Positions 1,437-28,343 of a DNA stretch of 64,000 bases are shown here, one piece after another (within the stretch, counting starts at the first letter, position 1; each line of letters begins with the position of its first letter). Location: assembly GCF_054482525.1 (NCBI RefSeq), contig NZ_CM137006.1; one strand, 5' to 3'. The notes under the pieces were generated by a model that saw nothing but the letters and a program-made list of their open reading frames with translations, was not told the origin of the DNA and did not search any database. Position numbers and translations under genes: made by a program.

Positions 1437-1604
1437 TCAGGCCATTACTACCCTGTCCGCCATGGCTTCTCGCCAGCCTCCCAGCCATTGTGACCTTTGA
1501 TTCAGCGTCTGATAGGGACACATTTCTTTTGAGCGTCCGGCGATGCCGGCCTGATAACCACGTTGATGTGCCCGTTCCAGGCGATCTCGTTTTTGTCTCT
1601 TCAT
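1437..1604 (-). CDS. rmf: Ribosome modulation factor (55 aa)
   Basis: Hand-translated minus-strand ORF MKRQKRDRLERAHQRGYQAGIAGRSKEMCPYQTLNQRSQWLGGWREAMADRVVMA; below the ORF-track length cutoff; the listed 65-aa ORF 1423..1620 is an overlapping wrong frame. Confidence 0.9.
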   Translation of the reverse strand: MKRQKRDRLERAHQRGYQAGIAGRSKEMCPYQTLNQRSQWLGGWREAMADRVVMA

Positions 1605-1859: not shown

Positions 1860-2423
1860 TTAAGGTAGACGCTTTATCTCTTGCGCAATAGAAGCGGCTT
1901 CCTGACTCCAGACACTGGCCAGTACTTTAACCATCTCATCGTAACCATCCTGAGTTTGCACCCCTTCCAGACGGAACGGACGTTTGATCAGTTGTCCCTG
2001 GTGGTTCAACAGCCATTCACCACTGACAATGACCTTGCCATCATAGCGACCGTTAAACTCCGTTACGGTAACATTGAGCGTGTCCTGGGCGCTTCCCAGA
2101 GGCTGGGAGGCAACCACCCAGCCGGGCAGTTGCGTACTCAGGTTGGCAACCAGAGTGTTGCGCAACTGTTGATCCAACGGGCTGGCCCACAAGTTGTTGT
2201 TGGCAATCACATACTTCACATCACTGGTTTGATAAACCACACCATTTCCGGCCAGATAGTCAGGAACAGCGAACTGCTCTACCCATAACAGGCGATTACC
2301 CTGGCTGGCGGTACTTTGTGTACCGCTCTGCACCACAGGTAACTGGTAATAGTTTTTATTAATTTCGCCGGAGCTGCATCCGGCCAGCCACAGTGCTGCA
2401 ATCGTCACTAGCCACTTTTTCAT
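1860..2423 (-). CDS. pqiC: Paraquat-inducible lipoprotein PqiC (YmbA)
   Basis: ORF track, 187 aa; signal peptide with lipobox LAGCSS; 4-nt overlap with pqiB stop. Confidence 0.9.
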   Translation of the reverse strand: MKKWLVTIAALWLAGCSSGEINKNYYQLPVVQSGTQSTASQGNRLLWVEQFAVPDYLAGNGVVYQTSDVKYVIANNNLWASPLDQQLRNTLVANLSTQLPGWVVASQPLGSAQDTLNVTVTEFNGRYDGKVIVSGEWLLNHQGQLIKRPFRLEGVQTQDGYDEMVKVLASVWSQEAASIAQEIKRLP

Positions 2424-11540: not shown

Positions 11541-12551
11541 TTAGATATGGGTAACGATTTCTTTAATCAGCGGCGGACCTTTAAAAATAAAACCAGAATA
11601 AATTTGCACCAGTGAGGCCCCCGCAGCAATCTTTTCACGCGCAGCGATAACCGAGTCAATGCCGCCAACACCGATGATCGGTAAGCGACCGTTTAATTCC
11701 TGTGACAAGCGGCGAATAATTTCTGTGCTTTTTAACTGAAGCGGACGACCACTTAAGCCACCGGTTTGATCGCAATTTTTCATTCCCTGAACCAGAGAAC
11801 GATCGAGAGTGGTATTGGTTGCAATAACGCCATCAATATTATGGCGAACTAAACTATCGGCAACCTGGATCAATTCTTCTTCAGAAAGATCCGGCGCGAT
11901 CTTCACTGCGATCGGCACATATTTATGGTGCATCGCTTGCAAATCATTTTGCTTATTTTTAATCGCGGTTAAGAGATCATCCAGCGCTTCGCCATATTGC
12001 AGTGTGCGTAGTCCTGGGGTATTCGGCGATGAAATATTGATGGCGATATATCCCGCATAAGCATAGATTTTTTCCATACAAATCAGATAGTCATCTTTAC
12101 CCTGCTCCACCGGCGTATCTTTATTTTTGCCGATGTTAATACCCAGGACGCCATCATAATGGGCTTTTTTTACGTTCTCTACGAGGTTATCAACGCCAAG
12201 ATTATTAAAGCCCATACGGTTGATCAAACCTTCGGCATCTACCAGACGAAAGAGACGCGGCTTGTCATTACCTGGCTGTGGACGTGGCGTGACGGTACCG
12301 ATCTCGATCGATCCAAATCCCATCGCGCCTAACGCGTCAATGCACTCCCCGTCTTTATCAAGACCGGCTGCCAGACCAAGCGGATTTTTAAACGTCAGGC
12401 CCATGCAGTTAACAGGTTTCGCAGGCACTTTCTGCCGCACCAGTGCTTCAAACGGCGTTCCGGTAATGCGGCGTAATTGCTGAAAAGTAAACTCATGAGC
12501 GCGCTCTGGATCGAGCTGGAAAAGGGCTTTACGAACGAAGGGGTAGTACAT
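11541..12551 (-). CDS. pyrD: Dihydroorotate dehydrogenase (quinone) PyrD (336 aa)
   Basis: ORF-track 11541..12578 trimmed to the conserved start [11 protein letters not shown]; class 2 DHODH sequence. Confidence 0.95.
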
Positions 12552-12637
12552 GAACTCTCCTGGATTCCCGGTGTGCAAACCGGGGGCGTATTATGTGCGA
12601 GTTCGGACCAAAAGGGAATTGACCTGTGGCAAAAAAA

Positions 12638-24045: not shown

Positions 24046-24262
24046 TATGCCGGATGTGGCGCACAAAACCAGCATTTCCAACGGACTTGTGGGCCTGATA
24101 AGACGCGTCAAGCGTCGCATCAGGCAGTTGGACCCGGTTGCCGGATGCGCGTAAACGCCTTATCAGGAAGTTGGGCACGGCTGCCGGATGCGGCGTGAAC
24201 GCCTTATCCAGCCTACAAAACCAGCATTTTCAACGGACTTGTAGGCCTGATAAGACGCGTCA
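24046..24262. repeat. BIME: cluster of REP palindromic units between ssuB and pepN
   Basis: Several REP-like palindromes (GCCGGATGCGGCGTGAACGCCTTATCCAGCCTAC, GGCCTGATAAGACGCGTCAAGCGTCGCATCAGGC) separated by a repeated linker AAAACCAGCATTT(C/T)CAACGGACTTGT; the last unit is interrupted by the IS. Confidence 0.85.
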
Positions 24263-24313
24263 TGAACTGCACCCCAAATGTTGGACATAATCTGACATCT
24301 GAAGGTGCAGTTT

Positions 24314-24835
24314 ATGAAACATTCATTTGAAGTAAAACTTGCCGCTGTAAATCACTACCTGGCTGGTCATGCAGGCATCATTTCTACGGCAAAACTCTTT
24401 CAACTTTCTCACACCAGCCTCTCACACTGGATTAATCTTTTTCTTCTTCACGGTCCTCGGGCACTGGATTGCAGACACAAGCGTAGCTATTCTCCTGAAG
24501 ATAAACTTTGCGTGGTTCTTTATGCTCTCGGGCATTCTGAGTCTCTACCCCGGGTAGCTGCCCGGTTTAACATTCCCAGCCACAACACGGTTAAAAACTG
24601 GATAAAAGGCTACCGCAAATCTGGTAATGAGGCCTTTATCAGGCGCAGGAAGGAGAAAAGCATGACCCGTTCTGATGATACCCATGAAAACGAGGCAAAC
24701 ATGACGCCGGAAGAGATGAAGAATGAGCTGCGTTATCTTCGCGCAGAAAATGCATATCTGAAAGCCATGCAGGAGCATCTCCTGGAAAAAAAGCGCCAGG
24801 AGCTGGAGAAAAAACGAAAGTCATCCGGAGCCTGA
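24314..24835 (+). CDS. IS3-family transposase OrfA (helix-turn-helix and leucine-zipper part)
   Basis: ORF-track 24305..24835 (GTG) with likely ATG at 24314 (MKHSFEVKL) preceded by AGGTG; ends just after the slippery heptamer A-AAA-AAG at 24787-24793. Confidence 0.85.
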   Translation: MKHSFEVKLAAVNHYLAGHAGIISTAKLFQLSHTSLSHWINLFLLHGPRALDCRHKRSYSPEDKLCVVLYALGHSESLPRVAARFNIPSHNTVKNWIKGYRKSGNEAFIRRRKEKSMTRSDDTHENEANMTPEEMKNELRYLRAENAYLKAMQEHLLEKKRQELEKKRKSSGA

Positions 24836-24939
24836 GGTGCGGACACTGCCAGTCTGACCTGTTAAAGGCTGCAGGGCTGGCCAGAAGCACGCTGTACTAC
24901 CAGCTGTCACTGCAGAAGGCTAAGGACAAGTATGCTGAT

Positions 24940-25694
<755 letters not shown>

Positions 25695-25720
25695 GTCAAG
25701 CGTCGCATCCGGCATTTTGG
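25695..25720. repeat. Distal half of the REP unit split by the IS
   Basis: GTCAAGCGTCGCATCCGGCA directly after the right IS end completes the palindrome begun at 24242-24262. Confidence 0.8.
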
Positions 25721-25730
25721 CTCAAAAGTA

Positions 25731-28343
25731 TCAAGCCAGTGCTTTAGTTATCTTCTCGTACAGATCGCCAGAGAGATTTTCCAGCCCTTTCAACTGCTCC
25801 AGCGCCGCGCGCATTTTCTCCTGACGTTTGGCATCGTAACGCTTCAGGCGAATCAGCGGCTCAATCAGGCGCGAAGCCACCTGCGGGTTACGGCTGTTGA
25901 GGTCGGTAAGCATTTCCACCAGGAACTGGTAACCGCTGCCATCTTCGGCATGGAACGCTGCCGGGTTGCTGCCCGCAAACGCGCCAATCAACGAACGAAT
26001 GCGGTTCGGGTTGCTCATGGTAAATGAGCGATGCTGCAACAGACCACGCACCGTCTCCAGCACATTTGCCGCCGGGCTGGTGGCTTGCAGGATAAACCAT
26101 TTATCCATCACCAGACCGTCCTGATGCCACTTGTCGTCGTACTCCTGCATCAGCGCGTCACGGCATGGCAGCTGTGCAGCAACCGCCGCAGAAAGCGCGG
26201 CCAGCGCATCGGTCATATTGTTTGCTTCATGGAACTGCTTGCTCACCAGCACGTCAGCCAGATGCGTTTCACCAAAAGCGAGGAAACGCAGGCAGGCATT
26301 TCGCAGAGTGCGTTTTGCAATATCTTCATGCTCAACACGGTACTCGCTCTGGTAATTCGCGTTGTAAATAGCCAGTAGCTCATCCGCCAGTTCAGTCGCC
26401 AGAGTACGAGTGAGTGCTTCGCGTACTTCAGCAATAGCAATCGGGTCGATGATATCGAACAGTTCTGCCATTTCATTGACGGAAGGCAGCGTCAGGATTT
26501 CTGCCGCCAGTGCCGGATCAATCTTCTCATCAAGCAGTACCGCGCGGAAAGCATCAGCCACATGCACCGGCAGAGACAGCGGCTGCCCTTGCTGATGACG
26601 GGCGACGTTGAGCTTGATGTAGGTTGCCAGCAGGCTTTGCGCCGCATCCCAGCGGGAGAAATCATTACGCGCATGGCGCATCAGGAAGGTCAGTTGCTGA
26701 TCGCTCCACTTATATTCCAGTTTCACTGGCGCAGAGAATTCGCACAGCAGCGCAGGCACCGGCTGAAAGTAGACATTATCAAAGACAAAGGTCTGTTCCG
26801 CCTGGGTGACGTTCAGCACCGAATTCACCGGGTGACCGCCTTTCTGCAACGGGATCACTTTGCCTTCGTTGTCATACAGTTCGATGGCAAACGGAATATG
26901 CAGCGGCTGTTTTTCTGCCTGATCCGGCGTAGCAGGCGTGCGCTGGCTGATGGTCAGGGTGTACTGCTCGGTTTCCGGATTATAGTCGTCTTTGACGGTC
27001 ACAACCGGCGTACCGGACTGGCTGTACCAACGGCGGAAATGAGAGAGATCGACATTCGACGCATCTTCCATCGCCTGAACAAAGTCGTCGCAGGTTGCCG
27101 CGCTGCCATCATGGCGCTCGAAATAGAGCTGCATCCCTTTCTGGAAGTTTTCTTCGCCCAGCAGGGTGTGGATCATGCGAATCACTTCCGCGCCCTTCTC
27201 GTAAACGGTCAGGGTGTAGAAGTTGTTCATCTCAATGACCATATCCGGGCGGATCGGGTGCGCCATCGGGCTGGCGTCTTCCGCAAACTGCAATCCGCGC
27301 ATGGTGCGCACGTTGTTGATACGGTTTACCGCGCGGGAACCAAGGTCAGAGCTGAATTCCTGATCGCGGAAGACGGTTAAACCTTCTTTCAGGCTGAGCT
27401 GGAACCAGTCGCGGCAGGTCACACGGTTACCGGTCCAGTTATGGAAATATTCATGGCCGATAACACGCTCAATATCGAGGTAATCTTTATCGGTGGCGGT
27501 GTCGGTACGGGCCAGCACATATTTGGAGTTAAAGATATTCAGACCTTTATTCTCCATTGCGCCCATATTGAAGAAATCCACCGCGACGATCATATAGATG
27601 TCGAGGTCATACTCCAGGCCGAAGCGTTCTTCATCCCATTTCATGGAGTTTTTCAGCGAGGTCATCGCCCACGGCGCACGATCAAGGTTGCCGCGATCGA
27701 CGTACAGCTCCAGCGCAACTTCGCGACCAGAACGCGTGGTGAAGGTGTCGCGCAGCACGTCGAAGTCGCCTGTCACCAGCGCAAACAGGTAGCACGGTTT
27801 CGGGAACGGGTCCTGCCACTGTACCCAGTGACGTCCGTTTTCCAGTTCGCCTTGCGCAACGCGGTTACCGTTGGAAAGCAGGAAGGGATATTTGGTTTTA
27901 TCGGCAATAATTTTGGTGGTAAAACGCGCCAGCACGTCCGGGCGGTCAAGATAATACGTAATATGGCGGAAACCTTCGGCTTCACACTGAGTGCAAAGCG
28001 CATCGCCTGACTGATAAAGCCCTTCCAGCGCGGTATTCGTCGCCGGGCTAATTTCATTAACGATCTTAAGCGTAAAACGCTCCGGCAAATTACTGATGAC
28101 CAGTGCGCCCTCTTCTTCTTTCCAGGCGGTCCACGGCTCATCATTAATATGAACAGAAACCAGTTTAAGATCTTCGCCATCAAGACGAAGCGGAGCATCT
28201 GATGCACCATGACGGACAGCCTGGCTGACCGCGGTAACGACCGTCTTTTGCGCGTCCAGGTCAAAGGTCAAGTCAATATCAGTAATCTGGTAATCCGGCG
28301 CACGATAATCGTGACGGTATTTGGCTTGTGGCTGTTGAGTCAT
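25731..28343 (-). CDS. pepN: Aminopeptidase N
   Basis: ORF track, 870 aa; M1-family motifs GAMEN and HEYFHNWTGNRVTCRDWFQLSLKEG. Confidence 0.95.
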   Translation of the reverse strand: MTQQPQAKYRHDYRAPDYQITDIDLTFDLDAQKTVVTAVSQAVRHGASDAPLRLDGEDLKLVSVHINDEPWTAWKEEEGALVISNLPERFTLKIVNEISPATNTALEGLYQSGDALCTQCEAEGFRHITYYLDRPDVLARFTTKIIADKTKYPFLLSNGNRVAQGELENGRHWVQWQDPFPKPCYLFALVTGDFDVLRDTFTTRSGREVALELYVDRGNLDRAPWAMTSLKNSMKWDEERFGLEYDLDIYMIVAVDFFNMGAMENKGLNIFNSKYVLARTDTATDKDYLDIERVIGHEYFHNWTGNRVTCRDWFQLSLKEGLTVFRDQEFSSDLGSRAVNRINNVRTMRGLQFAEDASPMAHPIRPDMVIEMNNFYTLTVYEKGAEVIRMIHTLLGEENFQKGMQLYFERHDGSAATCDDFVQAMEDASNVDLSHFRRWYSQSGTPVVTVKDDYNPETEQYTLTISQRTPATPDQAEKQPLHIPFAIELYDNEGKVIPLQKGGHPVNSVLNVTQAEQTFVFDNVYFQPVPALLCEFSAPVKLEYKWSDQQLTFLMRHARNDFSRWDAAQSLLATYIKLNVARHQQGQPLSLPVHVADAFRAVLLDEKIDPALAAEILTLPSVNEMAELFDIIDPIAIAEVREALTRTLATELADELLAIYNANYQSEYRVEHEDIAKRTLRNACLRFLAFGETHLADVLVSKQFHEANNMTDALAALSAAVAAQLPCRDALMQEYDDKWHQDGLVMDKWFILQATSPAANVLETVRGLLQHRSFTMSNPNRIRSLIGAFAGSNPAAFHAEDGSGYQFLVEMLTDLNSRNPQVASRLIEPLIRLKRYDAKRQEKMRAALEQLKGLENLSGDLYEKITKALA

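Follow-up and report, generated by a model that had tools for sequence, protein, structure and literature searches.

A very probable programmed -1 ribosomal frameshift signal, A_AAA_AAG, between the transposase genes of an IS1397 copy

We analysed one stretch of DNA of 64,000 nucleotides (the window) and found that A_AAA_AAG at 24787-24793 is, with high probability, the programmed -1 ribosomal frameshift signal of the insertion sequence IS1397, at which tandem tRNA-Lys slippage would be aided by an SD-like sequence and a hairpin. An earlier note on this DNA had read the heptamer as a -1 slip site; its sequence, its phase and its location in the overlap of the two transposase genes were confirmed. 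That interpretation is correct, and the site is already known from the RefSeq annotation and from the tables of PMC4066793. The main value of the result is in annotation, where the two ORFs should be joined as OrfAB and labelled IS1397, as RefSeq does already, and it is of little import past that. The displaced position of the slip site is a nuance that is new beyond the known IS1397 signal and leaves the main verdict unchanged.

The heptamer and the two reading frames that it connects are located as follows.
24787-24793, plus strand: slippery heptamer A_AAA_AAG, unchanged in five IS1397 variants of 95.5-100% identity.
24314-24835, plus strand: orfA, 173 aa, an HTH protein and the zero-frame product made without a shift (HTH_28, HTH_29 and HTH_Tnp_1 matches).
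24793-25662, plus strand: orfB frame after the -1 shift, 289 codons and a stop (HTH_21, rve and rve_2).

The AAAAAAG at 24787-24793 belongs to a G-A7-G run (24785-24793, with the A7 at 24786-24792). Base 24787 is codon position 3 whether counted from the ATG at 24314, which is the RefSeq choice and was taken here as the orfA start, or from the earliest possible start, GTG 24305, so the zero frame reads gaA AAA AAG, which is the X_XXY_YYZ phase, inside the orfA/orfB overlap. The orfA stop TGA (24833-24835) was measured 39 nt past the heptamer end, near enough to the 40 nt given before. The orfB gene is in the -1 frame relative to orfA, as is usual for the IS3 family; this frame has no stop from 24727 up to TAA 25660-25662, giving a frame overlap of 109 nt. 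The earlier note had placed its end at 25662, which holds, and its opening at 'at least 24781', whereas it opens earlier. No -1 stop, which the note had named as evidence against the fusion, is present between 24793 and 24940. The sole ATG, GTG or TTG of the -1 frame before position 25000 is the codon at 24940, described earlier as an ATG and actually a GTG. AAAAAAG occurs 16 times on the plus strand and 12 times on the minus strand of the 64-kb window, and the bare heptamer is uninformative alone; it is the phase, together with the position inside the 109-nt overlap of two ORFs that jointly span the IS3 transposase profile, which argues that this site is not a chance occurrence.

The fusion OrfAB (24314..24793 joined to 24793..25662) has 449 aa, and its predicted junction peptide is ...HLLEKKAPGAGEK (join ...LLEKK/APGAG...). 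Its Pfam domains are HTH_28/HTH_29/HTH_Tnp_1, then HTH_21, starting at about fusion residue 210 near GTG 24940, then rve, rve_2 and rve_3. The NCBIfam model transpos_IS3 matched positions 1-369 of 369 with 387 bits (cut-off 160), a full-length coverage reached by the fusion only and by neither ORF alone. The DD(35)E residues are legible in WVTDI, HSDQG and MENF, the second D and the E being separated by 35 residues. The domain order, the full profile match and the RefSeq annotation all bear out the IS3-type OrfAB arrangement proposed before. Translation with a -1 shift at 24787-24793, the check suggested in the note, gave a protein that equals the NCBI 'IS3-like element IS1397 family transposase' at every residue (71 contigs), and the identical OrfA sequence was found on more than 1000 contigs. 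The RefSeq CDS of IS1397 copies consists of two pieces with the note 'programmed frameshift', maps to 24314..25662 here, and is also annotated at the same ssuB-pepN locus of strain PCN033.

The element is IS1397, and its boundaries and insertion site were read as follows.
24263-25694, plus strand: complete IS1397, 1432 bp, in the IS150 group of the IS3 family; 100% identical throughout its length to RefSeq copies so named in many complete E. coli genomes.
24263-24287, plus strand: left terminal inverted repeat IRL, starting 5'-TG; 25-nt arms, 84% complementary.
25670-25694, plus strand: right terminal inverted repeat IRR, ending CA-3' and pairing with IRL.
24259-24262, no strand assigned: left copy of the target-site duplication GTCA, read from the sequence.
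25695-25698, no strand assigned: right copy of the target-site duplication GTCA, read from the sequence.
24239-24262, no strand assigned: left half of a split REP/palindromic unit, whose other half is at 25695-25715, with the IS in the palindrome loop.

The 25-nt inverted repeats read TGAACTG.../...CAGTTCA, and the ends, the length and the duplication fit the IS3-family description (TG...CA, 1.2-1.6 kb, 3-4 bp). When the flanks are rejoined with one GTCA, they equal the unoccupied site of strain 19KM1831 (100% over 400 nt) and form the REP palindrome GCCTGATAAGACGCGTCAAGCGTCGCATCCGGCA, with the arms GCCTGATAAGACGCG-TCA-AGCGTCGCATCCGGC. The repeat search detected other REP-type repeats in the flanks and a BIME cluster between ssuB and pepN. 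REP targeting is a known hallmark of IS1397 (PMC1525189), and the present element is the same as IS1397 in sequence, in OrfAB, in its REP-loop insertion site with a short target duplication, and in the SD, heptamer and hairpin values. The IS1397 site between ssuB and pepN is polymorphic, being empty in 19KM1831 and occupied, for example, in PCN033. A near-full IS1397 copy (one place covering at least 80%) was found in 1707 of 5426 genomes, and the copy described here is the only one in the window.

Three elements flank the heptamer, the first two of them candidate stimulators of the shift.
24797-24834, plus strand: downstream hairpin, 38 nt, spacer 3 nt; -12.4 to -13.9 kcal/mol, shuffle-based z of -2.6 to -3.4.
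24771-24775, plus strand: SD-like AGGAG, candidate upstream stimulator, 11 nt upstream of the heptamer.
24770-24784, plus strand: small hairpin CAGGAG-cau-CUCCUG directly 5' of the A-run; -8.3 kcal/mol, z = -2.2.

In the downstream hairpin, a 2x2 internal loop separates a 4-bp outer stem (CAGG/CCUG) from a 7-bp inner stem, and the 3' arm reaches into the orfA stop codon. The hairpin's first pair, at +4, is C-G, and the next three are A-U, G-C and G-C, in agreement with the rules of PMC4066793 (structure 4-10 nt past the motif, first pair G-C or C-G plus at least 3 pairs, unfolding of at least 7.6 kcal/mol). The same study (Sharma et al. 2014) lists IS1397 orfA as its cluster A_AAA_AAG_5, for which -1 PRF, in its words, 'can be safely inferred', and reports that all 59 IS1397 sequences (100%) have both an SD and a hairpin (Table S8); the hairpin values given there (38 nt, spacer 3 nt, first stem 4 bp) are those recovered here. 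A_AAA_AAG is the best -1 PRF motif in E. coli according to PMC4066793, where the measured values are 0.29% for the bare motif, 4.3% when the IS911 stimulators are added and 39% when the IS3 pseudoknot is. Two properties of the hairpin count against the signal: its modest stability (about -12 to -14 kcal/mol) and the short spacer of 3 nt, where 5-8 nt is usual.

The note had suggested looking for a stem-loop or pseudoknot within 24795-24860; the stem-loop is there, at 24797-24834, and the pseudoknot partner is absent. Helices of at least 5 bp between the loop 24808-24822 and 24835-24920 numbered zero, and a wider search gave a lone 6-bp match about 70 nt distant, so a pseudoknot was rejected for want of an adequate partner of the loop. 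The GGAG at 11-nt spacing is found in 15 of 32 relatives (17 if GAGG or GGAGG at 10 nt is counted). IS1397 copies hardly vary among themselves: the variants (95.5-100% identity, n=5) all retained the heptamer and the SD box, the variant G24827A changes U-G to U-A in the downstream hairpin with the pairing kept, and C24781T keeps its pair as G-U in the hairpin 24770-24784. Two other folds were considered and rejected. A relic of an ancestral stem, GCAUCUC 24775-24781 with GAGGUGC 24834-40, was equalled by 9% of shuffles, and the variants G24839A and G24836A break its pairing. An extended hairpin base GCGCC/GGUGC (fold 24767-24845, up to the last heptamer G) is disrupted by variants, and the published 38-nt hairpin was preferred. 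The frameshift region matched no Rfam family, whether at gathering thresholds or with E allowed up to 10, and a sigma-70 promoter scan of the element gave nothing beyond the shuffle expectation.

From these features and by analogy with characterized elements, we infer the slipping, its rate and the roles of the SD and the hairpin. The majority of ribosomes would end at TGA 24833-24835 and produce the 173-aa OrfA. A minority would slip with tRNA-Lys on AAA in the P site (24788-24790) and on AAG in the A site (24791-24793), both tRNAs shifting back one base onto AAA AAA, and translation would resume in the -1 frame from 24793 to 25662, yielding the 449-aa OrfAB with HTH, HTH_21 and DDE/rve domains. 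Both flanks probably favour slipping: the AGGAG, 11 nt upstream, through possible pairing with 16S rRNA, and the 38-nt hairpin, 3 nt downstream, through a possible stall of the ribosome. The ratio of OrfA (a regulator, by analogy) to OrfAB (the enzyme) would determine the level of transposition, as in IS150, IS911 and IS3. In PMC4066793 the IS1397 PRF event is likewise graded 'inferred', not demonstrated.

The relatives scan, with one genome per species, returned 580 relatives, mostly Bacillota and ISKpn1-like elements of Klebsiella, Kosakonia, Enterobacter, Shimwellia and Pantoea. The best OrfB identity outside E. coli is only 50-58%, and among the representative genomes scanned there was no intermediate relative between about 58% and 99% OrfB identity. 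An in-phase A_AAA_AAG or A_AAA_AAA lies in the overlap at almost all of 61 related loci; the relatives' A-run is mostly six A's and a G, and always in phase. The tblastn homology to relatives starts at residue 2-7 after the slip site. Independent initiation of orfB in homologues, named in the note as evidence against the fusion, was not seen: the relatives examined lack an orfB-frame start codon in the overlap or close to it, and farther downstream they share no conserved start.

The heptamer of all 32 aligned relatives and of K-12 IS150 codes for the end of the ENAYLKK motif (MYLKK in IS150). It is followed by 6 nt and then by GCCUUAGNUC(A), which pairs about 50 nt on with (U)GANCUAAGGC. This ancestral-type helix is 93% paired, versus 19-48% when slid, shows compensatory changes in 5 of its 11 pairs, and matches the IS150 hairpin listed in PMC4066793 (48 nt, spacer 6, first stem 10 bp). 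The homologous position in IS1397 is the following.
24760-24766, plus strand: homologue of the family slip site (ENAYLKK), non-slippery G_AAA_GCC, located by aligning protein and DNA with those of 32 relatives and IS150.

IS1397 keeps ENAYLK with codons that read CTG AAA GCC there, and its A_AAA_AAG lies 27 nt downstream of the family-conserved slip position, with a different stem. In the shorter IS1397 hairpin, a new 5' arm pairs with part of the former 3'-arm region. ENAYLK and VIxxLR lie at a distance of 19 residues both in IS1397 and in the Bacillota relatives, and it follows from this unchanged distance that nine linker codons are in the orfA frame in IS1397 and in the orfB frame in the relatives. 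In the ISKpn1-like elements, a second, poor in-phase A_AAA_AAT occurs about 30 nt past the main site, roughly at the position of the IS1397 heptamer. The alignments make it fairly likely that the recoding cassette has turned over in IS1397: the conserved site would have been destroyed, and the lysine-rich A-run 27 nt downstream, with its SD at 11 nt and a new hairpin, would have taken over. An origin by duplication of 27 nt was rejected, as the segments at offsets of 26 and 27 nt appear only about 30-40% identical by eye. Since the site is off the family-conserved position, the conservation in the family backs the mechanism rather than the exact heptamer. For the evolution of recoding, the displaced site would be a small example of a frameshift signal moving within an overlap with the protein length kept.

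Other routes to the transposase were weighed, one of them through a further A-run of the overlap.
24808-24814, plus strand: second A-run G_AAA_AAA, a weak alternative slip site in the hairpin loop.

Transcriptional slippage, in which the RNA polymerase adds an extra A at A7 24786-24792 and the A8 mRNA encodes OrfAB in one frame, would give the same protein as ribosomal slippage, so the annotation fits both equally. The run has exactly seven A's, a number that is enough in IS1447 (PMC6211511), and the 6-bp hairpin 24770-24784, which in the nascent RNA would assist the polymerase slip, ends 1 nt before it. The element IS1447 (Firmicutes, IS3 family, formerly filed under the IS150 group) does slip in this way and resembles IS1397 in having an A-run of at least seven directly after an RNA stem-loop at the orfA/orfB junction (PMC6211511); it differs in the opposite (+1) direction of its frame change, which occurs at A9, and in having no in-phase X_XXY_YYZ-G heptamer. 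We consider this route very unlikely for IS1397, since transcriptional slippage needs neither the X_XXY_YYZ phase nor the terminal G, and both are present. The SD at 11 nt and the hairpin 3 nt downstream also suit the ribosomal model, as do the relatives' runs, mostly of six A's and a G and always in phase. For IS150, Vogele et al. reportedly showed by experiment in 1991 that the frameshift is ribosomal.

Even less probable is a productive shift at the second A-run, giving ...EKKRQELEKK/TKVIRSLR..., which would draw on its location inside the overlap, on the perfect re-pairing of the A-site AAA on AAA, on the in-phase A_AAA_AAT about 30 nt after the main site of the ISKpn1-like elements, and on a single NCBI entry with the corresponding fusion (MCW7009108.1). 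PMC4066793 assigns the IS1397 signal to A_AAA_AAG, and the P-site tRNA would re-pair on GAA at the second run, which is therefore not a true X_XXY_YYZ. It also lies in the loop of the hairpin with the next downstream structure about 20 nt off, and its fusion is known from 1 contig versus 71 for that of the main site. The remaining option, no recoding at all and an orfB translated from GTG 24940 alone as a transposase without the OrfA part, we regard as the least credible. GTG 24940 is the ORF-finder start, the HTH_21 match starts near it, and some IS3-family members, such as IS911 and IS150, also produce a separate OrfB. Against such a start, the 49 codons of the -1 frame upstream of GTG 24940 are conserved in the relatives (VIxELR...AGxxRSTYYY), which have no conserved start there, and the full IS3 transposase model requires both parts. 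No good SD precedes GTG 24940, the AAGGA ending 14 nt upstream. The doubt raised in the note about 24940 as the true orfB N-terminus is borne out by tblastn homology, which begins about 44 codons upstream of that GTG.

The preferred reading, ribosomal slippage at A_AAA_AAG, has parallels in other systems. The E. coli dnaX gene (gamma/tau) has A_AAA_AAG, an SD-like sequence about 10-11 nt upstream and a downstream stem-loop, as IS1397 does; dnaX is a cellular gene, and after its shift translation terminates early and the product is shorter, versus the longer fusion of IS1397. IS150 (insJ/insK of K-12) belongs to the same group as IS1397 and has the same heptamer, -1 direction and OrfA/OrfAB logic. 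The 3'-arm region of its stem (codons E/S-L-R) is homologous to that of IS1397; in IS150, however, A_AAA_AAG lies in YLKK with a 6-nt spacer and a 48-nt stem-loop, whereas in IS1397 it is found 27 nt farther downstream, the spacer is 3 nt and the hairpin 38 nt. IS911 shares with IS1397 the three-part layout of SD-like GGAG, A_AAA_AAG and downstream hairpin, and both are entered as SD = Y and structure = Y in Table S4 of PMC4066793. Unlike IS1397, it is a member of the IS3 group, and its hairpin is 57 nt with a spacer of 6 nt (PMC4066793). According to the title of a study cited in PMC4066793 (its reference B32), IS911 OrfB is also initiated at an AUU codon in the overlap; the sequence of the IS1397 overlap has no equivalent of this AUU start.

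A second structure was observed at the 3' end of orfB and is separate from the frameshift signal.
25618-25644, no strand assigned: perfect 12-bp inverted repeat at the orfB 3' end, arms 25618-25629 and 25633-25644.

A strongly covarying 14-bp helix occupies the same position in 30 relatives and IS150: compensatory change affects seven pairs over 38 cells and includes the codon swaps ATG/CAT, CTG/CAG, TTG/CAA and TCC/GGA. Pairing is 95.6% on the antisense strand versus 84.8% on the sense strand, and 58 cells of the helix are G-U in antisense and would read as C-A mismatches in sense. Next after the helix, in antisense orientation, comes TTTTAATTT. The terminator scan of the minus strand detected it in IS150 and in the Klebsiella element, and did not detect the orfB hairpin of IS1397, where the T-run is lost. 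The orfB hairpin had no Rfam match either, under gathering thresholds as well as with E raised to 10, and we found no description of this antisense hairpin in the literature searched, though one may exist. From the antisense pairing and the terminator scan results, the orfB helix of the IS150-group relatives looks like an antisense-oriented intrinsic terminator within the coding sequence. Its occurrence across the IS150 group may merit separate attention.

We detected that the frameshift region of IS1397 differs in position from that of its group. The family slip site, located in the OrfA motif ENAYLKK and followed by 6 nt and then by a covarying long stem, is common to IS150 and 32 relatives. 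IS1397 carries G_AAA_GCC, a non-slippery sequence, at the homologous position (24760-24766), and its working heptamer (24787-24793) lies 27 nt further downstream. The downstream heptamer has its own SD box at a distance of 11 nt and a hairpin that is shorter than the stem of the relatives. The representative genomes outside E. coli contained no IS1397 relative between ~58% and 99% OrfB identity (loci L002-L081). The nearest relatives were mostly from Bacillota (Neobacillus, Paenibacillus, and Shimazuella), and the ISKpn1-like elements of Enterobacterales shared 52-54% OrfB identity with IS1397.

Two further features were detected around the heptamer:

within 24770-24792, 6-bp hairpin CAGGAG-cau-CUCCUG, -8.3 kcal/mol
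24808-24814, second A-run, G_AAA_AAA_C, in the stimulatory hairpin loop

The SD-like box is also the 5' arm of the 6-bp hairpin, which lies upstream of a run of exactly seven A's, with a gap of 1 nt between them. Hairpin-assisted transcriptional slippage was reported for IS1447 (PMC6211511), and the hairpin and A7 geometry of IS1397 (24770-24792) recalls that arrangement. Fusion at the second A-run was represented by one NCBI protein (MCW7009108.1), whereas the join at 24787-24793 was found on 71 contigs.

An additional hairpin was found in the 3' end of orfB, over the codons KLKG-L/M-SPV-E/Q-YRT-Q/H, ~50-80 nt inward from the right end of the element:

25618-25644, IS1397 copy in the window
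1499-1533, minus strand, counterpart in IS150 of K-12 (L086)
2309-2339, minus strand, counterpart in a relative (L016)

This hairpin was conserved in the IS150 group, where it demonstrated strong covariation (compensatory pairs, 7 of 14). The pairing was better on the antisense strand than on the sense strand (95.6% vs 84.8%), with TTTTAATTT after the hairpin on the antisense strand; these two features give it, as judged from sequence, the look of a putative intrinsic terminator in antisense orientation. IS1397 has kept the perfect 12-bp stem and lost the T-run. The Rfam search returned no family matching the orfB hairpin, and no description of it was found in the literature searched.

Comparison of the flanks (24063-24262 and 25699-25898) demonstrated that the IS1397 insertion between ssuB and pepN is polymorphic among E. 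coli. Strain 19KM1831 has the exact empty site, PCN033, SCU-102, and 19KM1776 have a 100% identical occupied junction, and ~160 genomes matched the junction query with a coverage of 80% or more. A match to nucleoid-associated ncRNA 4 (naRNA4, Rfam RF02564; 24092-24169, minus strand; 62.6 bits, gathering score 59.5) was placed in the same REP/BIME cluster into which IS1397 inserted. Elsewhere in the window, a PyrD leader (Rfam RF02373, 97.9 bits; 12546-12619, minus strand) lies upstream of a 345-aa minus-strand ORF, and both are ordinary E. coli chromosome context.
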